Assembly (NCBI GenBank): GCA_028707125.1
Contig: JAQTUX010000001.1
Coordinates: 13,639-77,638, forward strand
Origin: Candidatus Omnitrophota bacterium
Lineage (GTDB): Bacteria; Omnitrophota; Gorgyraeia; Gygaellales; JAQTUX01
Direction of reading: 5' to 3'
Length of the DNA stretch: 64,000 bases
The notes below the pieces were generated by a model, which worked only from the letters and a program-made list of their open reading frames with translations, had not been told where the DNA came from and did no database searches. Below, one piece after another: positions 24,827 through 42,668 of the stretch. Positions within the stretch are counted from its first letter, which is position 1; each line of letters starts with the position of its first letter. A program made the translations under genes and the position numbers.

Positions 24827-25507
24827 TTACTTCGTTAAGCCCGGCTGCTCCCTCAAAATTATGTTCCTGTTCAACACCGGCCTTATGCCGCGGTAGACGC
24901 GCTCAGCTATCGCCTTATACCCCTGGGCGTTGGGATGGACAAAATCGCTTTTCAAAGACGGATCGGCGATTATCTTGTCTAAGATAGCGGATATAAGTAT
25001 GCAATTATGCTTCCTGGCAAGCTGCCTTATTTCCTGCGAATGCCTCTTCATAATGTTCCTTGTGCTCAATTCTACCAGCGCCACCATCGCGCCGGCGCCG
25101 TTTACCGCCTTTACCATATTTTCTATATTGGCGACCGTATTTTCGGGCGGCACGCTTCTTAAGAAATCATTGCCGCCGAATTCTATGATCACAAGCAGCG
25201 GGTCGCGGCTGAGCACATCGGAATAGATCCGGAACATCGCCTGGGTGGACGTATCCCCCTCAACTCCGGCATTGAGCACCGGTATGTCTATTTTCTGGGA
25301 GAGGAAATCCGGGTAACTTTGCCCTGCCGGCGCACCGAAGCCAAAGGTTATGCTGTCCCCGAAACAGATGATATTCTTTCCCCGCGAATTAATATTCGCG
25401 TAGTCCTGCCGGAAATACTCGGGGAGCACGGAGATCAAAAGCAGACATACCAGAATAAGCCCGATCACTGCCCCGCCCAACAATCTATGTTTTTTTGCCA
25501 TGCTCAT
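24827..25507 (-). CDS. SGNH/GDSL-family hydrolase (TesA/arylesterase-like), secreted
   Basis: It has a signal/TM segment, block I IICFGDSITFG, block III GGNDF and a C-terminal DxxHP-like region. Confidence 0.8.
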   Translation of the reverse strand: MSMAKKHRLLGGAVIGLILVCLLLISVLPEYFRQDYANINSRGKNIICFGDSITFGFGAPAGQSYPDFLSQKIDIPVLNAGVEGDTSTQAMFRIYSDVLSRDPLLVIIEFGGNDFLRSVPPENTVANIENMVKAVNGAGAMVALVELSTRNIMKRHSQEIRQLARKHNCILISAILDKIIADPSLKSDFVHPNAQGYKAIAERVYRGIRPVLNRNIILREQPGLTK

Positions 25508-25541: not shown

Positions 25542-27002
25542 CTAAATATGCACCTCTCCTTTTGTCGCCCCTGCCTCCCATTTACCGACCCCCGCCATAA
25601 CGTCCTGGAAACACAACTTGGCGAGTATATCAAAATTGCTCTCCATGATACGGTTAATGCGCCCGGGTTTGGAGAAGAACTCGCGCATGCACCAAGAACC
25701 CAAACGGCCCAACTCTTCAATAGAAAGGTGGTCTGTGGGAATGACCGGATGAAGGAAATCCCAGGTGCTGAAGTCCACCTTCCTGGGGTCTATCCAGTTT
25801 TTCTTTAACGCTATCTTCCACATCGGAGAATTCGGAGCGGGGGTGACATATCCGACCCATAAGACATCCGGGTCAACTTCGTCGGTAAATTCATACCTTT
25901 GCTTGATTATCGCCTCCGTGTCATAGTCAAACCCCATCATGATATCGGCGACGATCGCGATATCGTTCTTGCGCAGTATCTCAATGGTCTTTTTGATCTG
26001 ATCTATCGTCGTGCCTTTAGCGATCCTCTTGAGCTCTTCCTGCGTGGTAACCTCTATCCCGAATACGCCCATAAACAGGCCCGTCTCTTTCATCAAAGGA
26101 AGGATAGATTCGCAATTCACCCAATCAACAGCCCTGCCTAAAGAGACCCATTTAATCGGTATGTTCTTTTTCTTCTTTAATTCACAGAACCTTTTTACGC
26201 GCGCGGGGTCAACATTAAAATTATCGTCCTGTATGACCACGACTTTAACGCCGTATTCTTTGTGCAAAACCTCCAGCTCTTCAATGACCCTCTCCGGGCT
26301 CTTGGCGCGCCATTTCAGGAAATCAGACGGCGAGCGCGGGTCGAACTGGTCCCATTCATAGCAGAAAGTACAGGCAGAAGGGCATCCCCGCGAAGTGATC
26401 ATATCGACAAACGGCTTCCAGTGGGTGTGGCCCACGTATTTATCCATGGGGAACAGATCGTATGCCGGAAGCGGCAGCTTATCCAGGTCAGCCATCAGCG
26501 CCTTATGCGGGCCCATTACGATCTTGCCGTTAATACGCGAGGTGACCCCGCCCACGCCTGACGGATCTTTTTTCTTATCTATAGCTTCGAGCAGATCCGC
26601 GAACGACTCCTCTTCACCCATAACCACAAAATCCACGGCGGAATTCTCCTCAAGCGTGGGAACAGGCATAGCCGAATACCATAATCCACCCAATATTATC
26701 TTTACATCGGGGAGCGCGGCCTTTATTCTTTGGGCTGCTTCTTTGAAGTGGCGTAAAACGCCGTAGCCGCCATAGCCATGTATCTGTTCGCCCATGACCA
26801 CAACATCGGGTTTCTTGGCCTTCACCTGTTCGATCAACTGGTCCATGGGTATTTCCAGGGCCCTGCCGTCAATAACCGCGACATCGCTGTATCCGCGCTC
26901 ACGCGCGAAACTGGCCCAATGCGCGTAGAGTTGATTCGGCGACCTGTGGATCCCGTGCGTTGCCCATGCCCCGACCTTCGGCATAACGAATAATATTTTC
27001 AT
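25542..27002 (-). CDS. B12-binding domain radical SAM protein (class B radical SAM, putative methyltransferase/tailoring enzyme)
   Basis: 486 aa with an N-terminal cobalamin-binding Rossmann domain (MKILFVMPKVGAW...VVVMGEQ) and a radical SAM CxxxCxxC motif (SRGCPSACTFC). Confidence 0.85.
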   Translation of the reverse strand: MKILFVMPKVGAWATHGIHRSPNQLYAHWASFARERGYSDVAVIDGRALEIPMDQLIEQVKAKKPDVVVMGEQIHGYGGYGVLRHFKEAAQRIKAALPDVKIILGGLWYSAMPVPTLEENSAVDFVVMGEEESFADLLEAIDKKKDPSGVGGVTSRINGKIVMGPHKALMADLDKLPLPAYDLFPMDKYVGHTHWKPFVDMITSRGCPSACTFCYEWDQFDPRSPSDFLKWRAKSPERVIEELEVLHKEYGVKVVVIQDDNFNVDPARVKRFCELKKKKNIPIKWVSLGRAVDWVNCESILPLMKETGLFMGVFGIEVTTQEELKRIAKGTTIDQIKKTIEILRKNDIAIVADIMMGFDYDTEAIIKQRYEFTDEVDPDVLWVGYVTPAPNSPMWKIALKKNWIDPRKVDFSTWDFLHPVIPTDHLSIEELGRLGSWCMREFFSKPGRINRIMESNFDILAKLCFQDVMAGVGKWEAGATKGEVHI

Positions 27003-27019: not shown

Positions 27020-27940
27020 CTATTTAAGGTTCAATATATCCGAAAAATTTTTGGACAAAACCTTCTCTTTTTCTTCTTCTTGTAATCCTGAATTTCGAAC
27101 AACATCAATAGAGCCCTGCAGGGCCCTGTTCGCCGGCCAGTCAGAGCCGAAAAGCATACGAGCGCTGCCTGACATTTCTAAGGCGCATTGTAAAACAGAG
27201 GCCGACTTGCAGCCGGATGTATCAATATAAATCCTGCTCAATATCTCAGAAGGCATCCCGCCTAAATCCTTAACGAGATTAATCCCGCGCAGCATATTGT
27301 AGGTCGTATCAAACCTCTCCTTGATAAACGGCAGCACCCCGCCAAAATGGGCAAATACGAATTTCAAGTCGGGGAATTTTGTAAATACCCCGGACATCAT
27401 AAGTTTACCCGCGCACATTGTCAGGTCAAAAACATATTCAATAACAGGGCCAAGCAGCGGGTCGTTAACGCGCTCTGAGCCGATGGGCTCTATGATCTGT
27501 GAATGCACAAAGATGGGTATCCTGTTCTTCCGGCAAAACTCATACACGCCAAAGAATATCTCCTCATCCAGATAAGCGCCGTTATAACTGGAGGCAAGAG
27601 ACAGGGCCTTCAGGCCCAGTTCCTTATACGCGCGCCTGCATTCCTTAAGCATCAACTCCGGCTCGCCGAAAGGCAGGATAAATGAGCCGATAAACCTGTC
27701 CGGATATTTCTTTACTATATCCGATACGCCGTTATTAAAAATAGCGGCTATACCCTGCCAGCCGCCTTCCGTATGCAGGTGCGCGTCCGTGGTAGGATAG
27801 GTAAGCAACGCCTTTTCTATGCCGGCTGCGCCCATCGCCTTGATCTGCGTCCCGATGTCTGACCAGGCAGGATGAAAGAACGAGGCGTTCTCTACTATCT
27901 CTTTCGGCAGCCAGTGCGAGTGGCCATCGTTTATGCTCAT
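27020..27940 (-). CDS. Amidohydrolase-2 family (TIM-barrel metal-dependent hydrolase/decarboxylase-like)
   Basis: 306 aa. The N-terminal HSHW metal-binding motif, internal VHSQ and C-terminal FGSDWP are typical of Amidohydro_2 (ACMSD-like decarboxylases/lactonases). Confidence 0.7.
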   Translation of the reverse strand: MSINDGHSHWLPKEIVENASFFHPAWSDIGTQIKAMGAAGIEKALLTYPTTDAHLHTEGGWQGIAAIFNNGVSDIVKKYPDRFIGSFILPFGEPELMLKECRRAYKELGLKALSLASSYNGAYLDEEIFFGVYEFCRKNRIPIFVHSQIIEPIGSERVNDPLLGPVIEYVFDLTMCAGKLMMSGVFTKFPDLKFVFAHFGGVLPFIKERFDTTYNMLRGINLVKDLGGMPSEILSRIYIDTSGCKSASVLQCALEMSGSARMLFGSDWPANRALQGSIDVVRNSGLQEEEKEKVLSKNFSDILNLK

Positions 27941-28719
27941 TTATCGGGATGCTCCTGCTTAAACGGTATCACCGGAGCGGTCCAGGGCGTCTGCTGGTTT
28001 ATCACCGCGATCTCCAGCGGACAGACGTTTGCCGGCACAGTCAGCGCAAACCTCACCGCGTTTTCTATGGCTTCGGTAGTCATAAGCCGCGAGGTATTGG
28101 CGGTCACCTCTTTCAGTTTACCGGTAAGGTCTGTGTCGGTCACGCCCGGCAGTATTGAGGTTATCTTGATGCCGTGGTCGCGCAGCTCCCAGAATAACCC
28201 CTTGGAGAACGCGCGCAGGCCTACCTTAAGCGAACTATAAACCAGAAAGTTCCTCGGCAAAGGGTCGCAGAGCGTTGAGCCGGATACCATGTTAATGATG
28301 GCGCCGGATTTATTTTTAATCATATCGTTGATAACTAAACGGATCATCCGTACATAACCTAAATAATTCGTGTGCACCAGGCGCTCAAAGTCCTCAAAGG
28401 GCTGTTTTTCAAAGGGGTATTGGCTGGAAACCCCGGCGTTGTTTATCAGGATATCTATCTTGCCGAATTTCTCTTTTGTCTTGTTCACCAGATTTTCCAG
28501 GTCCTCTAATTTAGTCACATCGCAAGGCACGGCCAGGACCTCTACCTTGTATTTCTTCGCCAGTTCCGCGGCGGTTTCCTTAAGCGGCCCCTCTCCGCGG
28601 GCGGCGAGGGCTAAATTAACGCCTAAACTTGCCGCGGTTGAGGCCAGTGCCTTACCTATGCCGCGGCTTGAGCCGGTAACTATGGCTGTCTTTCCTTTCA
28701 ACTCTGCGCTCATATTCAT
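27937..28719 (-). CDS. SDR-family oxidoreductase (3-ketoacyl-ACP/polyketide ketoreductase-like)
   Basis: It carries TGSSRGIG (TGxxxGIG), NNAG and the catalytic YxxxK (YSSLK). It overlaps its neighbours by 4 nt on both sides. Confidence 0.85.
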   Translation of the reverse strand: MNMSAELKGKTAIVTGSSRGIGKALASTAASLGVNLALAARGEGPLKETAAELAKKYKVEVLAVPCDVTKLEDLENLVNKTKEKFGKIDILINNAGVSSQYPFEKQPFEDFERLVHTNYLGYVRMIRLVINDMIKNKSGAIINMVSGSTLCDPLPRNFLVYSSLKVGLRAFSKGLFWELRDHGIKITSILPGVTDTDLTGKLKEVTANTSRLMTTEAIENAVRFALTVPANVCPLEIAVINQQTPWTAPVIPFKQEHPDK

Positions 28720-29162
28720 CTCCTGACTTTGGCTTCCTTTTCTATGACATCTTTAAATATCAGCAGGTTATCTTTGGAATGCTTATTAATAAAGCCCTCC
28801 ACCTGCTCATCGTTGAACTTCGCCTTATCGTCCATCTCAAAATGCTGTATCCAGGTCAGCAGGGTGCCTGCCTGCTTCGGCGTATAAAGCCAGACGATCT
28901 TCATATATTTAAAAGGGAATTTCGGCTCTTCTCTCTCGGAATAGGTAAAGTATTCATCTTTGAACAACAGCCGCCAGGACTGCCAGGACTTGCCTTCGTC
29001 ATCGGTAAGCCGGAAGGTGATCTTATTGCCTTCTCTTTTGAGCACCTCTGCCTTCTTGTATTCTCCTCCAAACAGCTCTGTCCAGCGTTCAATGTCGTTG
29101 GAGATCTCGAATATCCTGTCATAAGGCGCGTTGATCACGATCGAATTGCATGTATGCCCCAT
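28716..29162 (-). CDS. SRPBCC (Polyketide_cyc2/START-like) domain protein, putative polyketide cyclase/aromatase-like
   Basis: 148 aa with helix-grip-fold-like pattern (IVINAPYDRIFEISNDIERWTELF...), similar in size and organization to TcmN-type ARO/CYC domains. Confidence 0.55.
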   Translation of the reverse strand: MGHTCNSIVINAPYDRIFEISNDIERWTELFGGEYKKAEVLKREGNKITFRLTDDEGKSWQSWRLLFKDEYFTYSEREEPKFPFKYMKIVWLYTPKQAGTLLTWIQHFEMDDKAKFNDEQVEGFINKHSKDNLLIFKDVIEKEAKVRR

Positions 29163-29179: not shown

Positions 29180-29977
29180 TTATAATATCGCTACGACGCG
29201 CGCCCAGGCAGCGCCGGCGTCTTTGATCTTAACCGGAAAACACGCCACCTTAAAACCCGACGCCGGCAATTCATCCAAATTGGCCAGCCGCTCAATGTGC
29301 GCGTATTCCCGTTTTCTGCCGAAAAAGTGCGCCGGCCATAAATGCCTCGCGTCATGGGTGCGCGTAAAATCAGCCATCATGAATTTATACGGCCGGTCAA
29401 AGCCCAAAGTGTCGATGCCCACTATCTTCACTCCCGCGTCCAATAAATACCCTATGGCCGCGGGATCTACTCCGGGATAATTCGTCAAATATTCTTTTGA
29501 GCCGAAAAATTTATCCGCCCCCGTATGCAGCAATACGATATCGCCGGACTTAAGTTGATAATTTATCTTTTCCAGGGCAAAACGCGCGTCGTTCTTGGAT
29601 ATGACCTCTCCCGGTTTCTTGTCGGTGAAATCCAGGACCACCCCGTCGGAAAGGCACCATTCCAAAGGAAGCTCATTTATTGTCTTTGACGGCCTTCCCT
29701 GCGACTGGCTGCCGTAATGGAACGAGTAATCAATGTGCGTGCCGATATGCACCGGAGAATGCACTGTCTCAAGCGAGAGGAATTCTCCATCAGGCAGGTC
29801 TGATGGCTTTATGACCCTTTTGCCGAAAAGAAAATCCAGACGGCCCTTAAGCGTCCTTTTCATCATTACCCAGTTAAGATGGCGCACCCCGGGCTTATGC
29901 CCCAGCCGCTCGATCCAGAAAGGATGGACCTCGGGAGCGCTGTCGTCAATGGATATGCTTAAATCTATTATGTTCAT
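29180..29977 (-). CDS. Cyclase-family protein (pfam04199; kynurenine formamidase/polyketide cyclase-like)
   Basis: It has the HxGTHxDxxxH metal-binding motif (VHSPVHIGTHIDYSFHY) typical of the putative-cyclase family. Confidence 0.75.
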   Translation of the reverse strand: MNIIDLSISIDDSAPEVHPFWIERLGHKPGVRHLNWVMMKRTLKGRLDFLFGKRVIKPSDLPDGEFLSLETVHSPVHIGTHIDYSFHYGSQSQGRPSKTINELPLEWCLSDGVVLDFTDKKPGEVISKNDARFALEKINYQLKSGDIVLLHTGADKFFGSKEYLTNYPGVDPAAIGYLLDAGVKIVGIDTLGFDRPYKFMMADFTRTHDARHLWPAHFFGRKREYAHIERLANLDELPASGFKVACFPVKIKDAGAAWARVVAIL

Positions 29978-29980: not shown

Positions 29981-30214
29981 CTATGCCTTTTTTGAGCCAA
30001 TTATGGCGGCGATGTCCTTGATGGACTGGAATTTGCTGATCTCCTTCTCATCCAATTTTACACCAAACTCCTTCTCTAAAGCAATACGTATCTCCACCAT
30101 TTCGGTTGAGTCAACTCCGATGCCTTCGTAAAGTTTCGCGCCTGTGTCAATATTGGCGTTCCTGAGCCCCAGCAATTTTACTATCATGTCTTTTACTTGC
30201 GTCTCAATCTCCAT
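29981..30214 (-). CDS. Acyl carrier protein
   Basis: 77 aa. GVDSTEMVEIRIALEKEFGV has the phosphopantetheine-attachment Ser in a DSx motif at the start of helix II. Confidence 0.8.
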   Translation of the reverse strand: MEIETQVKDMIVKLLGLRNANIDTGAKLYEGIGVDSTEMVEIRIALEKEFGVKLDEKEISKFQSIKDIAAIIGSKKA

Positions 30215-30224: not shown

Positions 30225-31460
30225 CTATGCCTTCTTTAATATCAATGCCGAGTTGATGCCGCCCCTGCCGCGGGAAATAACCAGGGCGTTATTGATCTCC
30301 CGGGCAACGCCTTTATCTCTGATAAAATTCAGGTCCGCTCCCTTAACCGGCTCCTTCAGGTTTACCATCGGAGGAAGCATGCTGTTTTCCATGGCCAGTA
30401 TGGTGATTATAATGTCAACCGCGCCGGAGGCGCCCAGAAGATTACCCAGCATGGTCTTTGGCGCGCTTACCGGAATGGTTGCCGCTTTCTCGGCGAATAC
30501 ATCCTTTATGGCATTGATCTCGCTTGTGTCGCCGTCAACAGTAGCCGCTCCGTCAAGGCAAATGTAATCTATTTCCCGCGGCTTGATGCCGGCGCCTTGA
30601 AGCGCTATCTTTATGGCGCGCGCAAGCTGCCTGCCTGAGGCGTCCGCCTTTATCCTGTCTACCCCGTCGCAGGTCGCCCCGTATCCGGACACATACGCGC
30701 TGATATGCGCTCCTCTTTTTCTGGCGCGCTCTTCGCTTTCCATGATCATAATGCCGGCGCCCTCGCCTATGACAAAACCGTCCCGCTTTTCATCAAACGG
30801 CCTGTATGCCGCCTGCGGATCGGCGTTATTCGCGCTTAAGGCGCCGTAGCTGTTGCAGCATAACAGCGCGTAAGGCGTAACCGGCGCCTCCATTCCTCCG
30901 GCGAGGATAAAATCCAGCCGGTCTTTTTCCAGCGTCTTTTTGGCATAGCCGATGGCCATGAGGGAGGAGGCGCGGTCAGAGACGACCGTCTTGGAAAACC
31001 CCTTTATGCCGTAATAGATGGAAACCTGCCCCTGCGGCGCGGCAGGGAACCAGGCAGATGCCATATACGGGCTGACGCCTTCGCGGCCCTCCATATACAG
31101 ATCGCGCAGCTCTGTTTCGGCGTAAAGCCAGCCGCCGATGGCGTTGCCCATGAATATCCCTATATTATTGGGGTTTTCCTTTTGCACGTCTATCTTCGCG
31201 TCCTGAAGCGCCTGTTCTGAGGCGATCAGGGCAAGATGGGAAAAGGTGTCTATTTTTTTCAGCAGGCGTTCCGATAGATGAGAATAGGCATCCAGGTCTT
31301 CGATCTGCCCGGCGATACGCGAGGGATATTTTGAGGCGTCAAACCTGGTGATGGCGCGCACGAATGAACGGCCGTTCTTGATATTCGCCCAGAAAGGCCG
31401 CTTGCCCGTGCCTGCGGGCGCGACAATACCTATGCCTGTAACCACTATCCTCTTCATCAT
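30225..31460 (-). CDS. Ketosynthase beta / chain-length-factor-like subunit (KS fold lacking catalytic Cys and His residues)
   Basis: 411 aa with a thiolase/KAS fold. At the active-site position the sequence is VVSDRASSLMAIGYA instead of TGC(T/S)SGLDA. The HGT and GH motifs are replaced by DGAAT and GN. The start overlaps the upstream KS gene by 4 nt. Confidence 0.8.
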   Translation of the reverse strand: MMKRIVVTGIGIVAPAGTGKRPFWANIKNGRSFVRAITRFDASKYPSRIAGQIEDLDAYSHLSERLLKKIDTFSHLALIASEQALQDAKIDVQKENPNNIGIFMGNAIGGWLYAETELRDLYMEGREGVSPYMASAWFPAAPQGQVSIYYGIKGFSKTVVSDRASSLMAIGYAKKTLEKDRLDFILAGGMEAPVTPYALLCCNSYGALSANNADPQAAYRPFDEKRDGFVIGEGAGIMIMESEERARKRGAHISAYVSGYGATCDGVDRIKADASGRQLARAIKIALQGAGIKPREIDYICLDGAATVDGDTSEINAIKDVFAEKAATIPVSAPKTMLGNLLGASGAVDIIITILAMENSMLPPMVNLKEPVKGADLNFIRDKGVAREINNALVISRGRGGINSALILKKA

Positions 31461-32719
31461 TTACTCCATCTTTTTAACACAAGCGAAGAATGTATGCCGG
31501 AAAAGCCGCTTGCGGTTTTTAAAATAGTATCCACCCTTTTTTCCATCGCCTTATTGGGAATATAATTCAGGTCGCACTGCGGGTCCGGCTCCTCCTGATT
31601 TATCGTCGGAGGCAGGATATTCTTTTCAAATATCTGCGCGCATACCGTCAACTCCACGGCGTTGGCCGCCGCCAGAGGATGCCCGATCATCGATTTGAAC
31701 GAACTGATGGGAAGTTTATACGCGTAATCGCCGAATATCGTCTTGTAGGCTCCGGTCTCAAAGATATCGTTCATCCTTGTGGATGAGCCGTGGGCGTTTA
31801 TGTAGTCGATCTCCCGCGGCTTGACCTTCGCGTCCTTCAGCGCCATCTTTATGCAAGTAGACATCGCCTCCCCGTCTTGGGGCAGGTCGGTCATATGAAA
31901 GGCGTTGCAGCTTGAGCCGAATCCCGTGATCTCGCAGTATATATGTGCCCCGCGGTTTTTGGCGTGTTCCAGTTCTTCCAGTATCAAAACCCCGGCGCCC
32001 TCTGAAAGCACGAACCCGTCGCGCTTGTTATCAAACGGCCGCGACGCCTTTTCCGGCTGGTCATTGCGGTTGGACAATACGCTGACCACGTCAAAGGCCC
32101 CGAACGTAATAGGGGTAAGCGGCGCCTCTGCCGCGCCGGCGATCAAGACATCCGCTTCGCCGTCCCTTATCGCCTCAAAGGCAAAACCCACCGCGTCCGT
32201 GCCGGCGGTGCAGCCGGTAGAAAGGGTTTCACACAAGCCGTTCAGATGATAGCGCGCCGATATCTCGCTTGAAGGCGTATTGAACATCGCCGCGTCGTAG
32301 AGAACGTCGCTTGCCTTGGCAGGGTCGATCGGCTCTTTGCCGTGGTTTGTCACGCGCAGGAACTCCTCTTCCATATATTTGGTGCCGCAGATGGCGTTTG
32401 CCAGAACCACGCCTATCTGCTCAAGATTTTCTTTCTTAAAGTCCAGTTCTGAATCCTCAACCGCCATTTTGGCGCAGGTTACGCCGAACTGCACGTAGCG
32501 GTCCATCCTCGCCGCCTCCTGCCTGGTCAACCCCAGCTTTACGGGGTCAAATTCGTAGCAATATGCCGCGATCCGGGAATGGAACATTGAGACGTCAAAC
32601 ATGTCCACCTTTCTCACGGCGGACTTTCCCCGCGACATACCCTGCCAGACCCCGTCCTTGCCTATGCCGTTGGGTGATATGCAGCCGATGCCTGTAACAA
32701 CTACGCGCCTATTCTTCAT
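31457..32719 (-). CDS. Beta-ketoacyl synthase, type II PKS KS-alpha-like (active)
   Basis: 420 aa. The active-site LSTGCTAGTDAVGFA resembles the type II PKS KS-alpha TGCTSGLDA motif. His-His (NAHGSST ... KSMIGHPLAAA) is conserved. Confidence 0.85.
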   Translation of the reverse strand: MKNRRVVVTGIGCISPNGIGKDGVWQGMSRGKSAVRKVDMFDVSMFHSRIAAYCYEFDPVKLGLTRQEAARMDRYVQFGVTCAKMAVEDSELDFKKENLEQIGVVLANAICGTKYMEEEFLRVTNHGKEPIDPAKASDVLYDAAMFNTPSSEISARYHLNGLCETLSTGCTAGTDAVGFAFEAIRDGEADVLIAGAAEAPLTPITFGAFDVVSVLSNRNDQPEKASRPFDNKRDGFVLSEGAGVLILEELEHAKNRGAHIYCEITGFGSSCNAFHMTDLPQDGEAMSTCIKMALKDAKVKPREIDYINAHGSSTRMNDIFETGAYKTIFGDYAYKLPISSFKSMIGHPLAAANAVELTVCAQIFEKNILPPTINQEEPDPQCDLNYIPNKAMEKRVDTILKTASGFSGIHSSLVLKRWSK

Positions 32720-32725: not shown

Positions 32726-33310
32726 CTACTCCACTCTGGTTGCCCTGAACCTGACATTGCCTCCGTCAGGGCAGGTAATGGTGTTCAAAGAGTTCTCATC
32801 TTCCATAAAGGAAAATTTTGCCCCGAAATTAAGCGCGAACAAAACGGGAAACAGGGTATGGAACGCCGCCCCGCAGAAATTCGGAATGGTGCGCAGGCCC
32901 GTGGTCTCCCATTTATCTCCCGCCTTATAACCATAGAAGCATTTGCCGGTGACCTCCTCCACGCTGATTATCATTTTCCTGGGGCTGGGGCCTTTGTGAT
33001 CGGGATTCTTAGGCACAACCTCAACCTTGCCCGCGTCATCAAGGACCTCGGTAAAAAACTCCAGTTTCCCGCCGTCGGGGCAGGTCGTATGCATAGAACG
33101 TTGGTTCTGCTCAAAAGGGAATTTAGCGCCAAAAGTCAAGGCGTAGCAGGGCGCGAACACCGAATGCGCCATCCCCAGGCAAAAATGCTTGGGCGGATGC
33201 GTGAAATCATCAAGTATCAGCTGGTCGCCGACCTTATAATTATGGTAACAATACCCGCCTTGTTTGGTAACGGTCAATCTTAACTTGGGAAACTTTACCC
33301 TGCTTTCCAT
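32726..33310 (-). CDS. Tandem-duplicated Cys-rich protein of unknown function (2 x ~95-aa repeat ending in TCPDGG)
   Basis: 194 aa. Repeat 1 (GGYCYHNYKVGD...FCLGMAHSVFAPCYALTFGAKFPF...TCPDGGKLEF) and repeat 2 (GKCFYGYKAGD...FCGAAFHTLFPVLFALNFGAKFSF...TCPDGGNVRF) share conserved Cys/His positions. Confidence 0.4.
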   Translation of the reverse strand: MESRVKFPKLRLTVTKQGGYCYHNYKVGDQLILDDFTHPPKHFCLGMAHSVFAPCYALTFGAKFPFEQNQRSMHTTCPDGGKLEFFTEVLDDAGKVEVVPKNPDHKGPSPRKMIISVEEVTGKCFYGYKAGDKWETTGLRTIPNFCGAAFHTLFPVLFALNFGAKFSFMEDENSLNTITCPDGGNVRFRATRVE

Positions 33311-34296
33311 ATCTTCTCCTTGATCTGCTCTTTGGTGAGAAATCCGCCTGTCTTCTCTACCCTATGCACAAGTTCAACTAATTTTTTATTCAGCGGCGCG
33401 GGAACGCCGGTTTTCTCTGCTACGTCCGCTATCTGGCCGTTGATATAGTCAATTTCAGACGGCCTGCCCCGTTTAATGCTCTGCAATATTGAGCCATGGA
33501 GCGGCTCACTGCTCAATTTGGTCATAATGCCGGAAAATATCGCGGCTGCCTTATCAACAGGCATAAACGCGAGGCCGCGCGCCTTGTCAATATCAAAACC
33601 AGGCAGCGCGCCAGGTTTTATGCCTGCCCTGTCAACTGCCTCAAACGCTTCTTTCTGAAGCGCCAGCGCGAGCTTACACATCTCAATATCGGAAAACACC
33701 TCCTGCATACTCAGGCCGCAGAGCGCGGGAACGCAATTGTTGAGATTCACGAATAATTTTGTCCACTTCTGCGCCACAATATCGCTGCTCTGAACAATCT
33801 CAAAAGCAGAAGACAGCTCATCGGTTATTGTCTGTACTATTGTGCCGTTGGCGCCATAGGGTTTACCAACTATCCACTTGCCTTCAAAATTATGCACGAT
33901 CGCGCCGGCTTTAAGATATGTCGCTCCGAACATAACTATGCTTGATATGATGTTATCCCGGCCGATGAACCCCGAAATAATTTCGTCCGCCTTTACGCCG
34001 TTTTGCGTAGTCAGAACGGTTGTGTCTCTGAAATAATCTTTGTTCTGGCTATATGCCTCTTCTATATCCTGCGTCTTTGTGGCAAGGATGATCAGGTCCG
34101 CGCGGCTGCCAAGGCGTGTGCCTGCATCAAGATCGATCCGTAGGTCTCCGCGCGCGCCGCTTACCTTCAGGCCGCCATTCTTGATCGCCTCAACCTGGTC
34201 AGCCCGTCCGATCAAACAGACGTCTTTGCCCTTCTGCTTAAGATAGGCGGCAACCAGCCCGCCGATCGCTCCTGCCCCTATTACGGCTATTTTCAT
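33295..34296 (-). CDS. Ketopantoate reductase (ApbA/PanE)-family NAD(P)-dependent oxidoreductase
   Basis: N-terminal Rossmann motif MKIAVIGAGAIGGLVAAYL and a C-terminal ApbA_C-like helical domain. Confidence 0.75.
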   Translation of the reverse strand: MKIAVIGAGAIGGLVAAYLKQKGKDVCLIGRADQVEAIKNGGLKVSGARGDLRIDLDAGTRLGSRADLIILATKTQDIEEAYSQNKDYFRDTTVLTTQNGVKADEIISGFIGRDNIISSIVMFGATYLKAGAIVHNFEGKWIVGKPYGANGTIVQTITDELSSAFEIVQSSDIVAQKWTKLFVNLNNCVPALCGLSMQEVFSDIEMCKLALALQKEAFEAVDRAGIKPGALPGFDIDKARGLAFMPVDKAAAIFSGIMTKLSSEPLHGSILQSIKRGRPSEIDYINGQIADVAEKTGVPAPLNKKLVELVHRVEKTGGFLTKEQIKEKIWKAG

Positions 34297-34769
34297 CTCT
34301 TCTCGCTATACGCCTTAAGATTATCTAAAATGTTTTCCAGATTCCTGTCGTGTAATCCGCGAAAGACAAGTTTCCATAAGATCTTATTGGCCCATCCCCT
34401 GACCTTAAACAGCATCTCGTATTCCACCTTTACCTTATGGCAGCACATCTGCTTTAAAGAAACTGTTTCCATGCCCTCTAAAAATCCGTCTTTAAATTTG
34501 CGCGTTATGCTTTCGCCTTGCTTGATCTCAGAGACCGCTGCTTTCCACGACGGGCCGAACGGAAGCGCTACCTTCTGTATATACTCGCTGCCTTCTCGAA
34601 CAGGGCCGTCCGTGGTTTTGCTGAACCTCATCAAGGAATTCTCAGGCCACCATCCGGCCTCTCCCCACCTGACTATTTCAAGGAACAGCCCTTCAATCCC
34701 CGCCTCAATTATCCTGGCGTGATAATTGGAATAATATTTATTTGCCGAAACCATATTTAGCGTAATCAA
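34293..34769 (-). CDS. SRPBCC/Polyketide_cyc2-like domain protein
   Basis: 158 aa with a helix-grip-like pattern; weaker match than 28716..29162. Confidence 0.45.
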   Translation of the reverse strand: MITLNMVSANKYYSNYHARIIEAGIEGLFLEIVRWGEAGWWPENSLMRFSKTTDGPVREGSEYIQKVALPFGPSWKAAVSEIKQGESITRKFKDGFLEGMETVSLKQMCCHKVKVEYEMLFKVRGWANKILWKLVFRGLHDRNLENILDNLKAYSEKR

Positions 34770-35007
34770 TGCCTACCGCATCAAGTATCTTCTTCATCGG
34801 GGCGGCAAACGCCGCCGGCACGCCCATAAACATCGCCTTGACCACATCAACCTCCTCTATCAGCGCGCTGCCGCGCTCCGTAGCGTAAAGTTGCGCGCTT
34901 TCCCTGATGGATCCTTCGGCAATGCTCCTGTGGAACAGGGATATCTTATTGATGATCTGCCTGAATTTATCTTCTATGCCTTTTTCCCAAACCAGCTTAT
35001 CAGCCAT
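34738..35007 (-). CDS. Small PCP_red-like domain protein (hypothetical)
   Basis: 89 aa. LVWEKGIEDKFRQIINKISLFHRSIAEGSIRESAQLYATERGSALIEEVDVVKAM resembles the stand-alone C-terminal domain of protochlorophyllide reductase subunit B (PCP_red). Confidence 0.35.
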   Translation of the reverse strand: MADKLVWEKGIEDKFRQIINKISLFHRSIAEGSIRESAQLYATERGSALIEEVDVVKAMFMGVPAAFAAPMKKILDAVGIDYAKYGFGK

Positions 35008-35016: not shown

Positions 35017-36453
35017 TTAAACGCTGAACCAATTTGCCACCAAAGGCCTGCCTGACAGATCCGTATTAATATGCTTCAGGTTCGTATATTCCAACAGCCC
35101 CTCCCTGCCCAGCTCTTTTCCGAAGCCGCTCTGCTTGAACCCGCCGTAAGGCGCCTGAGGATAAAACATGCCGTATGTATTAATCCAGACCGTGCCGGCG
35201 TTGATCTGACCGGCTAATCTTTGCGCCTTTGTTAAATCCCTGGCCCATATGCTGGCAGCCAAACCAAAAGCAGAGTTGTTAGCCAGGCCCGCTGCTTCAT
35301 CAAGAGAAGAAAACGTGGATACGCCTGTAACCGGGCCGAACACCTCTTCCTGGAATATGTCCATTTCCGGCCTGACATCGGCAAACACCGTCGGCTCAAA
35401 GAAAAATCCCTGTTTCAGATCCGCGGGTATCTTGCCTCCGCAAACAAGATGGGCTCCCTGTTTTTCAGCCCGCTCAACGAAGGACATAACTTTTTTTCTC
35501 TGTTCCTTGCTTATCAACGGCCCCATCTGGGTTTCAGGATCAAGGCCGTCGCCTAATTTTAACGCCTTTGCCTTGCTCACAAAGGCATCTAAGAATTTAT
35601 CCGCGATCTTCTTATCAATTAAAAGCCGCGACATTGCCGTGCACATCTGCCCCTGATTTAAAAATATACCGCAAAGCAGGCCGCTGGAAACGGTTTCTAT
35701 ATCACAATCATCCAATACCACTGCCGCTGACTTTCCCCCTAACTCCATAACCAGTTTCTTGGTATTGGCTGAAGCCAATTTCATTATTTCTTTGCCAACC
35801 TCATTGCTGCCGGTAAAAGAGATCATGTCCACAGCTTTATGCGCGGCCAATGCCGCGCCGACAGTGCTGCCCGCGCCGGTAACGATGTTAAAGACGCCTT
35901 TAGGCAGGCCTGCCGCCTCTATAATACGGCCGAGTTCCAGCGCGCTTAAAGGCGTTAAGCTCGCCGGCTTAAGCACTATAGTATTGCCCGCGGCAAGGGC
36001 GAAGGCCGTCTTCCAGCAGGCGATCAACAACGGATAATTCCAGGGGACGATCAAACCAACTACGCCTATTGGCTGGCGCGTAAGCGCGCTTCTTGCCTCT
36101 GCCGGCAGTTTTATTTCTTCATCCTTAAGCCATTCCTGTGATAAATTGGCAGCGTCCTCAAACACCTGCGCTGCCGACGGGATGTCCATAAAGGTGGTTT
36201 CCTTTATCGGCTTGCCGGTATTCAATGACTCAATCTCAATTAACTTGGAGGCATTTTCTCTTATGCCTTCCGCGATCTTGAAAAGACAGGCGGCGCGCTC
36301 CTTTGGAGACATCTTCGGCCAGGGCCCGTTATCAAAGGCATTTCTTGCCGATGAAACAGCCCGCTCCAGGTCATCGAGCGCGGCTTCCGGCACCTGCGCG
36401 ATCACTTTTTCGTTACAAGGATTAATTATTTCTCTTTTTTTATTAACGTTCAT
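35017..36453 (-). CDS. NAD(P)-dependent aldehyde dehydrogenase
   Basis: 478 aa with ELGGKSAAVV (catalytic Glu region), a catalytic Cys in GQMCTA and GxGxxG/FTGS motifs. Confidence 0.9.
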   Translation of the reverse strand: MNVNKKREIINPCNEKVIAQVPEAALDDLERAVSSARNAFDNGPWPKMSPKERAACLFKIAEGIRENASKLIEIESLNTGKPIKETTFMDIPSAAQVFEDAANLSQEWLKDEEIKLPAEARSALTRQPIGVVGLIVPWNYPLLIACWKTAFALAAGNTIVLKPASLTPLSALELGRIIEAAGLPKGVFNIVTGAGSTVGAALAAHKAVDMISFTGSNEVGKEIMKLASANTKKLVMELGGKSAAVVLDDCDIETVSSGLLCGIFLNQGQMCTAMSRLLIDKKIADKFLDAFVSKAKALKLGDGLDPETQMGPLISKEQRKKVMSFVERAEKQGAHLVCGGKIPADLKQGFFFEPTVFADVRPEMDIFQEEVFGPVTGVSTFSSLDEAAGLANNSAFGLAASIWARDLTKAQRLAGQINAGTVWINTYGMFYPQAPYGGFKQSGFGKELGREGLLEYTNLKHINTDLSGRPLVANWFSV

Positions 36454-36487: not shown

Positions 36488-37483
36488 TTAGCGTATTTTC
36501 ACCTGCTTAAATAATTCAAACAGCCGGCCAAACGGCACATACCAGCGGGAAAGTTTACCTAATTCGCCTTTCAACTTCATTTTACCCTGCATAGTAGCCA
36601 CAAACGGCTCGATCTTACCTAAAAATACCGACTGCCAGACATCTGCCGGAGCCGATATGATAAAAGGCGCCTCATCATCAAATTCCAGCTTTGCTATCCT
36701 TCCCTTCTCAAAATTGAATTTATATGCCTTATTATGCCCGTCCATCTTGATCGCCAGTTTCAAGGTCAGGTCCAATTCCCCGCCTTTCTTCGCGATAAAC
36801 TCGTCCTTATTCACCAGGTCCACGATCGCCTGGATATGCTCCGGGGAAAACATCAAATACGACTTATCAGAAGCCAGGTTTTCTTTAAGCGCCTTATCCA
36901 GATCATCCAGTATATCCTTCTTAAACAGCCGCGCCACAGAAGCGGTCTTTACCGCCTCTTCCAATTCCTCAATAAGATACAACGCGTCTATGAATTTGTC
37001 CGCCATAGAGACCACGCCGTGATTCCTGATAAACGCTATATTGCTGTTTTTCAGGGCCTCGATCACCAGTTCCGGTTTTGTGATGGAAGGGGTATCCTGC
37101 GACACAGCGCTAATGTTGCCCAGATAGAGCCTGGTCTCAAAGGTCAGGGTCTTCAGTTCCGGATACACGGCAAAGTAGGCGTTGGCGAGCGGCGGATGGC
37201 AATGGATCACCGCTTTGCAGGGAAAATTCTTATAAATGGACTGGTGCAAAGGAAACTCCGAAGACAGGTTTTTTGCTTCTTGGGGCCTGCTCAAATCCAC
37301 TTTAATGATATCTTCGGCGGTTAAATTGCCCAGGCATGTTCCGCTGGCAGTGATAAGTATATTGTTATCGTCTATGCGGCAGCTCAAATTACCGCCGCGC
37401 GCGGCCACAAGGCGCAAAGCGGATAATTTCTTTCCGATATTGATCATCTCATCCCTTAAGGCCTTGTCTTTGCCGAATATCAT
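36488..37483 (-). CDS. Class II aldolase/adducin-family protein fused to C-terminal SCP2-like domain
   Basis: The N-terminal ~215 aa (LVAARGGNLSCRIDDNNILITASGT...HCHPPLA) is a FucA/MtnB-like class II aldolase. The C-terminal ~110 aa is an SCP2 sterol-carrier-like fold. Confidence 0.75.
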   Translation of the reverse strand: MIFGKDKALRDEMINIGKKLSALRLVAARGGNLSCRIDDNNILITASGTCLGNLTAEDIIKVDLSRPQEAKNLSSEFPLHQSIYKNFPCKAVIHCHPPLANAYFAVYPELKTLTFETRLYLGNISAVSQDTPSITKPELVIEALKNSNIAFIRNHGVVSMADKFIDALYLIEELEEAVKTASVARLFKKDILDDLDKALKENLASDKSYLMFSPEHIQAIVDLVNKDEFIAKKGGELDLTLKLAIKMDGHNKAYKFNFEKGRIAKLEFDDEAPFIISAPADVWQSVFLGKIEPFVATMQGKMKLKGELGKLSRWYVPFGRLFELFKQVKIR

Positions 37484-38421
37484 CTGCCGATCTCCAGAAT
37501 AAAATGTTTACTGATGAATTTATCGGGCGTAATATCAAACGCCGGATAATATCCTTTTACGCCGTAAGGGGCGAGCCGCAACCCCTTATATTCCAGCATC
37601 TCTTTTTCAGGGCGGACCTCTATTTTGATGTCCTTGCCTGTTTTCGCCTTTGAGGCAGGCGGGCATAAAACATAAAAAGGTATCTTAAAATGCCTTGCCA
37701 ATACCGCGATCTGATAAGTGCCGATCTTGTTGGCGACGTCGCCGTTTCGCGCCAGCTGGTCGCATCCCACAATAACCTTATTCACCTTTCCCTGGGATAT
37801 GACGCTGGCTGTCATATTATCGGTTATCAGGGTTACGGGAACCTTTGCGCGCTGTAATTCCCAGGCGGTAAGGCGGCTGCCCTGAAAATAGGGACGGGTC
37901 TCTGTGGCGTAAAACCCTATTTTCTTGCCCTGCTTCCGGCAGAACTGCGCGATAAGCGGCAGTTCACCGCTGACATTGCAATGGGTAAGTATGCTGTCGC
38001 CGTCTTTTAGATGATCAGCCACTTCCTCTGCCCGCTTAATCCGCTTATGCCTCAACATCTCTAAAAATCCATGGATCATCTTTTCTAAATCTTTTCCTTG
38101 CGCCTGCCAGCCAAGGACCATATCAGTAAGGAATTTGAACGGCAATGTAGGACGAGTGGCATTAAGCGTATCAGCTACCTTCTTGAGAACTTTGCCTGTA
38201 TTTTTACCGCCCCTGTTCTGCCTCAAAACCAGCAGAAAAGTATAGAAAACCAGGATCACCTGGCCAAAGGCGCGCGTCTTCATTGCCTTGATCGCCCTTG
38301 CCGCCTGCTGGTATGTCCTTACCTTTATATATGTGAGTTTCTGCGGCAGCGCTGTCTCATCAAGCACATAGATCGTGTCACCCTTCAATTCTATCGGCCA
38401 AAATAATGGTGAAAATGTCAT
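37480..38421 (-). CDS. mtnA: eIF-2B alpha/beta/delta-family isomerase (methylthioribose-1-phosphate isomerase MtnA / ribose-1,5-bisphosphate isomerase-like)
   Basis: 313 aa. IELKGDTIYVLDETALPQKLTYIKVRTYQ...VGCDQLARNGDVANKIGTYQIAVLARHFKIPFYV matches the MtnA/e2b2 family. It overlaps the aldolase gene by 4 nt. Confidence 0.8.
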   Translation of the reverse strand: MTFSPLFWPIELKGDTIYVLDETALPQKLTYIKVRTYQQAARAIKAMKTRAFGQVILVFYTFLLVLRQNRGGKNTGKVLKKVADTLNATRPTLPFKFLTDMVLGWQAQGKDLEKMIHGFLEMLRHKRIKRAEEVADHLKDGDSILTHCNVSGELPLIAQFCRKQGKKIGFYATETRPYFQGSRLTAWELQRAKVPVTLITDNMTASVISQGKVNKVIVGCDQLARNGDVANKIGTYQIAVLARHFKIPFYVLCPPASKAKTGKDIKIEVRPEKEMLEYKGLRLAPYGVKGYYPAFDITPDKFISKHFILEIGR

Positions 38422-40363: not shown

Positions 40364-41113
40364 CTATTTCCCCTCTAACTTCTTCACAGTTGCCAGGGCG
40401 ATCTCGATCAGCTTTGATTCTGCCATATAATAAAGCGGGTTCATAAAGCCCATTTCGCCGGTAATCACGTTGTCGCTGACCGATAAAATTGAGCCGGCCT
40501 TGATCTTATATGTCTGCGCAATCGTTAAAAGCGCGGATGAGACCATATCCACGGCAATCGCGCCCTGCTTTCTCTTTGCCTCAACGATCTCTCTGGTCTC
40601 CCGCAGGAGCGCGTCGGTTGTCCAGCAGGTGCCGCGATGGATATTGACACCCATGCCTTTGGCGACTTCGTATAAAGTATCAGCGATCTTCTTATCGGCA
40701 AGCGTCTCAAAACCCTCATCCACATAATACGGCGTCACCCCGTCCCCGCGCAGCACCTTATCCACCACGATCAAATCCCCTACTTTGATATTCTCGTCAA
40801 GCGCTCCGCAGGTGCCGATACGGATAATGTTCTGTATTTCGGCGTTGCACATTACCTCGGAGGTGATCGCCGTATCCGCTGAAAACCTTCCGCCGTTTAT
40901 GGCGCTCACCCTTATGCCGTCAATCGCGCCGGTATACATCGTATATTCCATAAAGGAAAAATTCCTTATCGGGCTTTCTAATTTCTTTATCAGGACCTCT
41001 AACCTGTCCCTGGGCCCGGGCACGATCGCGTATTTACCCACATCCTGCGGCCGTAACTGCACCATCTGCGTCAAATCCCTGCCCGTCAAATGAACCTCTT
41101 TTTGCATTTGCAT
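40364..41113 (-). CDS. PNP/UDP phosphorylase family 1 protein (purine/uridine or MTA phosphorylase-like)
   Basis: 249 aa. RIGTCGALDENIKVGDLIV and VDMVSSAL are consistent with DeoD/Udp/MtnP-type nucleoside phosphorylases. Confidence 0.75.
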   Translation of the reverse strand: MQMQKEVHLTGRDLTQMVQLRPQDVGKYAIVPGPRDRLEVLIKKLESPIRNFSFMEYTMYTGAIDGIRVSAINGGRFSADTAITSEVMCNAEIQNIIRIGTCGALDENIKVGDLIVVDKVLRGDGVTPYYVDEGFETLADKKIADTLYEVAKGMGVNIHRGTCWTTDALLRETREIVEAKRKQGAIAVDMVSSALLTIAQTYKIKAGSILSVSDNVITGEMGFMNPLYYMAESKLIEIALATVKKLEGK

Positions 41114-41123: not shown

Positions 41124-42560
41124 TTATTTCCTCAATGCTTCCTTATCCACTTTGCCCGTTCTATTCTTAGGCAGCGAGTCCACGAAATTTATATGATGCG
41201 GGATCTTGAAGTGCGCCAGATGCTGGCGGGAGAACTGCCTGATATCCGCCTCTTTTAATTCCGCCCCGTCCTTTGCCACAATGAACGCCGCCACTGCCTC
41301 TCCCCTTAATTCATCGGCCACGCCTATCACAGCCGCCTCTTTAACCAGCGGATGCCGCATAAGCGCTGCTTCAACTTCAGGCGAATAAACGATCTCGCCG
41401 CTTACCTTGATCATCTCTTTCTTGCGGCCGATTATATAATATAGACCTTCCTCATCCTGCCTGACAATATCCCCGGTCTTAAACCATCCGTCTTCGCTAA
41501 GGACCTCGCGGGTCAGCTGCGGCTCTTTATAATATTCCTTCATCACCGCGTCGCCCCTGATCCAAAGCTCGCCATCCACGATCTTTGCCTCTATTTCAAA
41601 ATCTAATTTTCCTATACTGGATAATTTATTGATATCCTTGGGCGAATAGGCGTTAGGAGCGGCGGTCTCGGTCAGGCCCCAGCCGTTAAGCAGACAGGCG
41701 TTAGGGTATGCCTTGTGAAACCTGTTTAACAATTCCGGCGAGGAAGGCGCGCCGAAGACAACGGCATATTTCAAATGAGAAAAATCAAATTTATCGTATT
41801 CCTTTAACGATAAGATCGCCACATACATCGCCGGGACGATGCAAAAGATGGTTACTTTATGCTTTTCCGTATTCCTCAGGAACTCCAAAGGATGGAATCT
41901 TTCCATCAACACCAGGGTTGAGCCAAAATACAGCATAAACAGGGCGTAATCAAAGCCGCCAAGATGCGAGAACGGCACTCCGCCGCATAAATATATGTCA
42001 TCGCAAGAGGCGCCCAAAAAATGCTCTATTGTCTTTACCGGGCTGTCAAAATGCTTATGCGTCAAGACCACTCCCTTGGGATGGCCGGTTGAGCCGGAGG
42101 TATAAAAAATGGAAGAGATATCTTGTTCATTGATTTCTATATCTGGCCTCGCGGAACTTGCCCCTATGTTATCGTTAAGTATGACGACCTGTTTCAGGCG
42201 GAGGCAGCGGGTTTGGATGGATTGCGCGTCTATGTCTTTTTTGGGCTGGGCGATCAGGAGTTTCGCGTCGCTGTGATTGATGAAATTAACGATCTCTTCC
42301 TGCGTTAACATAAAATCCAGGGGCACGCACACCGCGCCTGCGCTGAATACGGCAAAATAACTGTAGATATACTGGGGGATATTGGGAAGGAACACGGCCA
42401 CCTTATCCCCTTTTTGAATGCCCTGCTCAATGAGGAAGTTGGCGAGCTTAAAGGAGTTATCGCGCAAGTCCTTGAAGCTGACAGAGCTGTCGCGGAAGAT
42501 AAGCGCCGGCTTATCAGGCCGCTCTTTTGCCTGCTTTTCCAGTAATACGGTAATATTCAT
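41124..42560 (-). CDS. AMP-dependent synthetase/ligase (acyl-CoA synthetase family)
   Basis: 478 aa with the AMP-binding motif YTSGSTGHPKGVVLTH, GWGLTE and the C-terminal K of the ANL superfamily. Confidence 0.85.
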   Translation of the reverse strand: MNITVLLEKQAKERPDKPALIFRDSSVSFKDLRDNSFKLANFLIEQGIQKGDKVAVFLPNIPQYIYSYFAVFSAGAVCVPLDFMLTQEEIVNFINHSDAKLLIAQPKKDIDAQSIQTRCLRLKQVVILNDNIGASSARPDIEINEQDISSIFYTSGSTGHPKGVVLTHKHFDSPVKTIEHFLGASCDDIYLCGGVPFSHLGGFDYALFMLYFGSTLVLMERFHPLEFLRNTEKHKVTIFCIVPAMYVAILSLKEYDKFDFSHLKYAVVFGAPSSPELLNRFHKAYPNACLLNGWGLTETAAPNAYSPKDINKLSSIGKLDFEIEAKIVDGELWIRGDAVMKEYYKEPQLTREVLSEDGWFKTGDIVRQDEEGLYYIIGRKKEMIKVSGEIVYSPEVEAALMRHPLVKEAAVIGVADELRGEAVAAFIVAKDGAELKEADIRQFSRQHLAHFKIPHHINFVDSLPKNRTGKVDKEALRK

Positions 42561-42668
42561 AATATAGTAAAATTTTACTAATTAAATTGTATTATATAAA
42601 ATATCCCCTGAATGTCAAGGTTTTTTTAGAGATAAAACTGATTGGCTTAATTGAAGATACGGCGTGAA

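Follow-up and report, generated by a model that had tools for sequence, protein, structure and literature searches.

The DNA considered here, a window of 64,000 nucleotides from contig JAQTUX010000001.1 of a Candidatus Omnitrophota bacterium, carries on its minus strand a gene (30225-31460) whose product is a KS-beta, or chain-length factor (CLF), of the kind found in type II polyketide synthases (PKSs). Immediately upstream lies a gene for KS-alpha, the catalytic ketosynthase (KS), with an intact Cys-His-His triad and an active-site stretch that reads STGCTAGTDAVGFA. The stop codon of KS-alpha overlaps the start codon of KS-beta by 4 nt (ATGA), which points to translational coupling of the two genes, the usual arrangement (PMC9006962). 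Immediately downstream, in a gap left unannotated by an earlier reading of the DNA from its letters only (the sequence-only reading), lies a gene for an acyl carrier protein (ACP), whose PP-binding orthologues are found in the related loci L011, L012, L019, L023, and L024. With KS-alpha intact and KS-beta and ACP beside it, the three genes amount to a complete minimal type II PKS. NCBI lists the PKS proteins of the window as MDD4909109.1 (KS-beta) and MDD4909110.1, encoded on a 1.26-Mb contig of a Candidatus Omnitrophota metagenome-assembled genome.

The KS-beta protein is full-length and contains both ketosynthase domains (Pfam PF00109, E=1e-46; PF02801, E=1e-27). Its AlphaFold2 (AF2) model has a predicted local distance difference test score (pLDDT) of 93.7, and every top match to the model in the PDB (Foldseek) is a FabF, with template-modeling (TM) scores of 0.96-0.97; the fold is intact, and a CLF and a KS are not separable by it. 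The best NCBIfam match is also fabF (TIGR03150), at 403 bits, under the cutoff of 493.75. The NCBIfam scan gave no match to a CLF-specific model, the FabF models scoring best and staying below the equivalog cutoff.

What the protein lacks is the catalytic triad. Residues 159-173 read VVSDRASSLMAIGYA, and four independent alignments concur in placing Arg163 in register with the cysteine of KSs and the glutamine of CLFs: one by HMMER against FabF structures; two by MAFFT, the first including KS-alpha and 120 homologues and the second five annotated actinobacterial CLFs together with their KS-alphas; and one by profile to the actinorhodin (act) CLF 1TQY_B, where act Gln161 (VAEQAGG) stands opposite the arginine of VSDRASS. 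The first catalytic histidine position (His1) is occupied by Asp303, within LDGAAT (residues 302-307), and the second (His2) by Asn340, within LGN (residues 338-340). The sequence-only reading had correctly seen that Cys, Gln, and both histidines are gone, and the motif strings it quoted are present. Its register was off, though, and with it the serine that it placed at the catalytic position: alignment to KSs and CLFs puts Arg163 there, neither Cys nor Gln. Serines are found at -2 (Ser161), +2 (Ser165), and +3 (Ser166), and a serine nucleophile variant is ruled out.

By these features, the protein is not a FabF (KAS II), its triad being gone and its TIGR03150 score falling below the cutoff. 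Nor is it a KSQ or chain initiation factor, which combines Gln with retention of both histidines where this protein has Arg163, Asp303, and Asn340. The ApeC CLF of aryl-polyene systems is half-size, with a single thiolase domain (PMC8358021), whereas the window KS-beta has 411 residues and both domains. Of the features tested, all but the hallmark glutamine mark it as a KS-beta/CLF, the residue opposite act Gln161 being Arg163.

Many of those features are shared with the act CLF (ActI-ORF2, 1TQY chain B) and other actinobacterial CLFs: a full-length double thiolase fold, no Cys-His-His, an acidic residue preceding the Gln/Arg (Cys-equivalent) position, aspartate at His1, the motifs AWF and RGxGGxNS (SRGRGGxNS in the MAFFT alignment with actinobacterial CLFs), and a gene encoded right after KS-alpha and followed by ACP. 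The phenylalanine residues of the FabF motif GFGG are replaced by arginine, as they are in inactive canonical CLFs. Over the Cys position with its preceding residue, His1, and His2, the act CLF reads Glu-Gln/Asp/Arg, four Streptomyces CLFs Asp-Gln/Asp/Arg, and a Pseudonocardia CLF Asp-His/Asp/Arg. Since canonical CLFs have no histidines at these positions, their double loss is a family trait, consistent with the description of KS-beta as devoid of canonical active-site residues (PMC9006962); what had been taken as special to 30225-31460 is generic, found likewise in the act CLF and five other actinobacterial CLFs. Just two departures from the canonical pattern are left, Arg for Gln and Asn for Arg at His2. 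Overall, the window KS-beta is about 36-39% identical to five plasmid-borne actinobacterial CLFs, and its host, in contrast to that of the act system, belongs to an anaerobic uncultured phylum. The Pseudonocardia protein (L015, 2953-4170 of plasmid pBCI1-2) is annotated as a ketosynthase chain-length factor and has histidine at the hallmark position (VVTDHAGGLD); glutamine is thus not universal even within Actinomycetota.

A neighbor joining tree of 52 sequences (100 bootstraps, distances computed with numpy), made by a simple distance method from a query-biased sample, gathers all KS-betas lacking the cysteine into one clade at 100% bootstrap, with the act and Streptomyces CLFs inside it. The Omnitrophota KS-betas form a subclade at 92-100%, and the window KS-alpha joins other KS-alphas, including three from actinobacteria (Streptomyces among them), at 98%. 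Along with the Pfam matches and the alignments, the KS-beta clade bears out the initial identification of a CLF-like KS-beta beside a catalytic KS-alpha.

The unusual residues are held fixed. Asp162-Arg163, Asp303, and Asn340 are invariant in 120 of the 120 closest homologues (database clusters, 69-95% identity), many of them labeled by source as Candidatus Omnitrophota or Omnitrophica, and Lys335 is also absolutely conserved in the Omnitrophota KS-beta family. At least 418 loci in the metagenome contigs scanned encode relatives. Among 86 metagenomic loci, Asp-Arg is present in all 83 that are readable at the site, Asp at His1 in 68 of 68, and Asn at His2 in all 79 in which the position is detectable. 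All six arginine codons (CGG, AGG, CGC, AGA, CGT, and CGA) are in use across the loci. So much codon diversity beneath an invariant residue indicates selection on Arg163, not sequencing error or decay. A local sequencing error had been named at the outset as what might undo the observation, and it is true that CGC (Arg) is one transition from TGC (Cys). Set against an error or a decaying pseudogene are the 120 proteins, the 83 loci, the six codons, an intact open reading frame (ORF) with a confident AF2 model, and the presence of Asp162 and of residues of the KS-beta type at both His positions; the explanation was rejected, as it has practically no chance of being correct.

An exhaustive HMMER search of representatives clustered at 50% identity reduces the whole Omnitrophota family to about one representative (P0121, 59% identity) and finds arginine at the Cys position in at least 15 further, distant KS-beta clusters at 37-47% identity. 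In these distant clusters the residues at His1/His2 are variously H/H, D/H, E/H, A/N, D/N, D/D, and A/S. Given the number of loci and of other clusters with arginine, it is doubtful that the variant is uncommon, as had been supposed. A scan of a genome collection with the single KS-beta protein yielded one true relative, in a metagenome-assembled genome (MAG) of Omnitrophota (70% identity); the other nine matches are Bacteroidota FabF genes and served only as an outgroup. Candidatus Omnitrophica is among the phyla with KS-CLF pairs in a catalogue of type II PKSs (PMC10132072), and literature searches found no paper describing arginine at the Gln position of a CLF. The representative library also contains natural single-chain fusions of a KS-alpha-like part (Cys-His-His) and a KS-beta-like part (P0122, P0126, P0132, P0135, P0137, P0155, and similar), in which the dead-triad residues vary widely, for example DT/D/H, DR/S/D, and GG/A/D.

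The minimal PKS is embedded in a long array of genes on the minus strand (Table 1). The order begins with the acyl-CoA/ACP ligase, followed by PNP_UDP_1, an orphan 323-aa ORF with HepT/MNT, the IF-2B isomerase, the aldolase-SCP2 fusion, and the aldehyde dehydrogenase (ALDH); it continues with the 89-aa protein, a 158-aa protein, the ApbA-like reductase, the TIGR04076 protein, KS-alpha, KS-beta, and ACP; and it ends with the PF04199 cyclase, the SRPBCC cyclase, the ketoreductase (KR), the Amidohydro_2 protein, the BchE-like radical SAM protein, and the GDSL hydrolase. The sequence-only reading had ALDH heading the operon. The co-directional array runs on upstream, to the ligase and to a promoter-like site that precedes it, so ALDH is internal to the predicted operon. 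No other site in 19.5 kb matches the sigma-70 consensus perfectly, the next best (11/12, 24502-24475) coming after the array.

Table 1. Features of the polyketide synthase cluster and its predicted operon, in the order of the minus strand, with the basis of each assignment and its occurrence in related loci.
Feature	Coordinates	Strand	Basis and occurrence
Promoter-like TTGACA-16-TATAAT, 12/12 sigma-70 consensus	42591..42618	-	consensus match only
Acyl-CoA/ACP ligase, class I adenylate-forming, first gene of predicted operon	41124..42560	-	accessory across relatives
PNP_UDP_1 nucleoside phosphorylase	40364..41113	-	family match
IF-2B family sugar-1-phosphate isomerase, MtnA-like	37480..38421	-	TIGR00524 210 bits, cutoff 186
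Class II aldolase fused to SCP2 domain	36488..37483	-	family match
Aldehyde dehydrogenase, last of four-gene module	35017..36453	-	after aldolase in L011, L024, L035, L057, L064, L100
Conserved small protein, 89 aa, no family match	34738..35007	-	18/19 loci
ApbA/PanE-type NAD(P)H oxidoreductase	33295..34296	-	19/19 loci
Tandem TIGR04076-family protein, two Cys-rich repeats	32726..33310	-	19/19 loci
KS-alpha, 420 aa, intact Cys170/His310/His347	31457..32719	-	Pfam, alignment
KS-beta/chain-length-factor-like subunit, 411 aa, Arg163/Asp303/Asn340 replacing Cys/His/His	30225..31460	-	Pfam, alignments, AF2, tree
Asp162-Arg163 codons GAC-CGC, KS Cys/CLF Gln position	30972..30977	-	sequence read; Arg163 CGC = 30972-30974
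Asp303 codon, first catalytic His position	30552..30554	-	alignments; Asp also in act CLF and 5 actinobacterial CLFs
Asn340 codon, second catalytic His position (Arg in canonical CLFs)	30441..30443	-	alignments
Acyl carrier protein, 77 aa, GVDST motif	29981..30214	-	directly downstream of KS-beta
Cyclase, family PF04199 (OxyN/ActIV-type)	29180..29977	-	Pfam; 19/19 loci
SRPBCC (TcmN-type) polyketide cyclase/aromatase, single domain	28716..29162	-	Pfam; 19/19 loci
SDR ketoreductase (KR)	27937..28719	-	Pfam; 17/19 loci, mean identity 85%
Amidohydro_2 protein, candidate decarboxylase	27020..27940	-	family match; 17/19 loci
B12-binding radical SAM protein, BchE-like	25542..27002	-	TIGR02026 207 bits, below cutoff; 19/19 loci, mean identity 82%
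GDSL/TesA-like hydrolase, candidate thioesterase	24827..25507	-	1/19 loci; closest relatives only

Conservation of the cluster was counted over 19 related loci whose flanks reach 9 kb or more on each side. ApbA, TIGR04076, KS-alpha, KS-beta, ACP, both cyclases, and the radical SAM protein are encoded in every one of them and the phosphorylase (PNP) in 17. The TIGR04076 protein and the 89-aa protein are conserved on a par with the PKS genes. No phosphopantetheinyl transferase (PPTase) is encoded in the Omnitrophota cluster. The gene for the radical SAM protein is one of the best conserved in the cluster. BchE, its best family match (below cutoff), is an anaerobic oxidative cyclase, and one may speculate that in an anaerobe the radical SAM enzyme might take over tailoring steps, anthrone oxidation for example, that otherwise depend on oxygen.

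The phosphorylase, isomerase, aldolase, and ALDH make up a module that travels with the PKS. PNP is present in 23 of the 26 loci with at least 8.5 kb downstream, usually followed by the isomerase, the aldolase, and ALDH, which are there wherever a locus runs on far enough. The module most often lies downstream of the PKS genes and sometimes upstream, as in the window (35017-41113); besides the window, it is found in L011, L012, L019, L023, L024, L030, L035, L057, L064, L078, L093, and L100. In L019, whose KS-beta is 59% identical, aldehyde:ferredoxin oxidoreductases (AFORs) replace ALDH. The window, L011, L024, and L027 are the only loci in which the ligase adjoins the cluster. Of the two enzymes put forward earlier as sources of a starter unit, then, ALDH is indeed a conserved component of the cluster, and the ligase lies beside it in only four lineages.

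Within the predicted operon, a HepT/MNT toxin-antitoxin pair (38443-39089) and the orphan 323-aa ORF (39239-40210) occupy a stretch (38443-40210) with a GC content of 0.40, against about 0.50, that is absent from the syntenic loci L011 and L024 and seems to have been inserted recently. The same strand carries, upstream (42669-50240), genes for AccA (acetyl-CoA carboxylase carboxyltransferase alpha), a PadR regulator, an RND efflux set (OEP, membrane-fusion protein, and AcrB), and a PG0541-family, transporter-associated protein. Some relatives have similar genes upstream: AccA-PadR in L023 and AcrB-PG0541 in L012, L030, L033, L034, and L061. On the plus strand, 56977-60865 encodes an MFS transporter and then an 895-aa protein with AMP-binding, PP-binding, and PlsC-acyltransferase domains, which looks like LplT/Aas lysophospholipid recycling and is unrelated to the PKS.

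The cluster resembles several known systems. Among them are the Ant-type PKSs, namely AntD/AntE/AntF of Photorhabdus (PDB 6SMO/6SMP) and those for dendrubin and pyxidicycline, which also come from non-actinobacterial hosts and share with the window a CLF without Gln, the order KS-CLF-ACP, TcmN-type and OxyN/PF04199-type cyclases, a KR, and a CoA-ligase gene. In place of the arginine of the window, AntE has aspartate, a residue taken from the published description and not from an alignment, and the Omnitrophota cluster adds the B12 radical-SAM enzyme, the TIGR04076 protein, the ApbA-like reductase, the Amidohydro_2 protein, and the four-gene module. A KS-CLF-ACP core with TcmN- and OxyN-type cyclases has been called the 'ancestral' layout of non-actinomycete aromatic PKSs (PMC7693217). 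The type II PKS on a plasmid of Bacillus bombysepticus (L018) and that of P0124 (L021/L022) have the same Asp-Arg at the Cys position, and they too pair the KS-beta with a KS-alpha, an ACP, a PF04199 cyclase, and an SRPBCC cyclase. They differ in keeping one or both histidines (DR/H/H or DR/E/H; L018 reads DR/H/H), in being only 43-46% identical, and in their tailoring genes, which are methyltransferases and an FAD oxidoreductase in L018 and FabH and PPTases in L021. A further parallel is amxFabFmut of the anammox ladderane clusters, an inactive KS homologue with its triad replaced that partners an active KS in a CLF-like heterodimer and has a B12 radical-SAM gene nearby. It differs from the window KS-beta in having Val or Thr at the Cys position, in a gene placed upstream of the active KS, and in its pathway, which is one for lipids, includes FabZ, and lacks polyketide cyclases. 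PDB entries 9S5H and 9S5I are probably amxFabFmut.

On balance, it is probable that the protein is the non-catalytic KS-beta of a type II aromatic PKS whose cluster is conserved in Candidatus Omnitrophota. By homology, it would pair with the adjacent KS-alpha, on which acyl transfer, malonyl-ACP decarboxylation, and Claisen condensation would all take place, and it would form half of the dimer-interface tunnel, thereby setting chain length. Opposite the act gate residues Phe109/Thr112/Phe116 it has Trp111/Ala114/Leu118, invariant in the family. Arg163, Asp303, and Asn340 would fill the vestigial pocket, most likely with Arg and Asp in a buried salt bridge and an amide as their partner. They may be regarded as the canonical CLF set with two residues swapped, Gln/Asp/Arg at Cys/His1/His2 having become Arg/Asp/Asn. 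In the alignments, arginine at His2 occurs only where the Cys position holds Gln, His, or Ala (7 sequences), and arginine at the Cys position never occurs together with arginine at His2 (18 sequences), Asp or Glu at His1 being common to both groups. The pattern suggests a single buried pair of arginine and acid with an amide plug, the arginine and the amide having traded places between two lineages. Priming would most likely proceed through decarboxylation of malonyl-ACP by KS-alpha, as in AntDE, whose CLF also lacks Gln. The poly-beta-ketone would then be reduced by the KR, cyclized by the SRPBCC and PF04199 cyclases, probably decarboxylated by the Amidohydro_2 protein, and modified by the B12 radical-SAM enzyme, and the product would be a small aromatic compound.

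Several observations weigh against this account. As a single sequence, the protein scores slightly nearer to FabF (about 300 bits) than to the act CLF (270 bits), and the interior of the KS-beta clade is unsettled, most of its deep nodes having bootstrap values below 50. The salt bridge, most likely as it seems, is a proposal from sequence. Some distant KS-betas with arginine (P0142, P0237, and Bacillus L018) keep both histidines, and for that reason there may be, or may once have been, lineages in which the arginine sits in a catalytic context. Also, with the ligase at the head of the operon and a conserved module ending in ALDH linked to the cluster, some room is left for a starter other than acetate.

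That last idea was reached earlier by a different route, from the absence of Gln and His to an external starter unit. The step does not follow: it would apply equally to act, which is acetate-primed, and a system with aspartate in place of Gln putatively makes acetate-primed octaketides. In AntE of Photorhabdus the Gln position is occupied by Asp, as given in the S2 Fig legend of its report (PMC6638757), and antDEFBG in E. coli led to molecules putatively identified as SEK4 and SEK4b, octaketides primed with acetyl (PMC6638757). AQ256 is built from eight malonyl-CoA (PMC12538586), and reviews describe acetate priming as decarboxylation by KS/CLF after transfer to the KS cysteine (PMC12664062). 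The residues, therefore, do not show a need for an unusual starter. The genes might still supply one, and a link of ALDH and the ligase to priming is possible: an aldehyde released by the module would be oxidized by ALDH and loaded by the acyl-CoA/ACP ligase, as EncN does in enterocin biosynthesis. The ligase resembles 4-coumarate-, feruloyl-, and fatty-acyl-CoA ligases, enzymes for aromatic or medium-chain acids, and it is the first gene after the best promoter-like site; the module recurs with the PKS, with AFOR enzymes standing in for ALDH in L019. Still, the proposal is rather unlikely. Besides the weakness of its premise, in the 10-kb flanks scanned the ligase appears in just 2 of the 19 loci, RND efflux genes lying upstream of the cluster instead in 5 of the 19. 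The cluster ORFs scanned (22.9-46 kb) include no KSIII (FabH-type), acyltransferase, or second ACP; PKSs with a non-acetate starter (R1128, daunorubicin, or enterocin type) have either these three or a ligase that joins the starter acid to ACP, and an AMP-ligase is present in the window. Such a ligase may serve otherwise, as loss of AntG cuts SEK4/SEK4b about 13-fold (PMC6638757), and the module looks like generic salvage of 5'-deoxyadenosine or methylthioadenosine (MTA), leading to acetate or methylthioacetate.

Two other explanations are improbable, each to about the same degree. Arg163 might itself be catalytic, its guanidinium serving in place of the Gln amide and KS-beta acting as a malonyl-ACP decarboxylase, that is, as a chain initiation factor. 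In favor are the absolute conservation of the arginine along with Asp162, Asp303, Asn340, and Lys335 and the distant arginine-type KS-betas that keep both histidines. However, decarboxylation in KS and KSQ enzymes is driven by the two histidines, and these are replaced throughout the Omnitrophota family, the GFGG phenylalanines have given way to arginine as in inactive CLFs, and no precedent for an arginine-dependent decarboxylase of the KS type was found in literature searches. Or the two KS proteins might form a heterodimer of the fatty-acid or ladderane type, comparable to amxFabF2/amxFabFmut, that makes a modified lipid and not an aromatic polyketide. The fold is strongly FabF-like, as is the best NCBIfam match, every cluster has a B12 radical-SAM gene, 'ladderane' biosynthetic gene cluster (BGC) calls have been made in Omnitrophota MAGs (PMC9902471), and there are inactive FabF partners whose Cys position holds Val or Thr (bioRxiv 10.64898/2026.05.19.726425). 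Against a lipid product stand the two families of polyketide cyclases in 19 of 19 loci, the placement of KS-alpha and KS-beta inside type II PKS clades (98% and 100% bootstrap), an order of KS-alpha before KS-beta that reverses that of the anammox pair, and the shortfall of the fabF score (403 bits, cutoff 494 bits); moreover, the cluster ORFs scanned (22.9-46 kb) include neither a dehydratase nor an enoyl reductase. The 'ladderane' calls (PMC9902471) may themselves be PKS clusters of the type seen in the window.

With the protein read as a non-catalytic KS-beta, the subunit is of a known kind, and what is new is the residue, Arg163. The glutamine of CLFs serves as a diagnostic residue and is cast in textbooks as the priming decarboxylase. 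Here arginine is fixed in a large, strongly constrained family, and the occurrence of arginine-type KS-betas in several other phyla makes the glutamine a trait of the actinobacterial branch and not of the whole subunit. Prediction of starter units from this residue is weakened accordingly, and the family offers a natural test of whether the position acts as structural plug or as catalyst.

The conserved cluster and its linked module are a more promising lead than the residue variant. Few biosynthetic clusters are conserved across the uncultured, largely anaerobic phylum Omnitrophota, and this is one of them. The module of phosphorylase, isomerase, aldolase, and ALDH resembles the dihydroxyacetone phosphate (DHAP) shunt for salvage of 5'-deoxyadenosine and MTA, and the simplest reading is that it is linked to the PKS in order to clear 5'-deoxyadenosine released by the radical-SAM enzyme. 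A bolder thought, for which we would claim only a slim likelihood, is that the arginine-type KS-beta marks a phylum-wide pathway in Omnitrophota that couples a type II PKS to a nucleoside-trimming module. In one possible version, the module would make the starter acid from a SAM by-product. In another, the polyketide would be adenosylated by the radical SAM enzyme, as happens to the substrates of HpnH/HpnG and MqnE/MqnB, and the module would then trim the ribose to a -CH2-COOH side chain. If true, either version would represent a new biosynthetic logic for aromatic polyketides.

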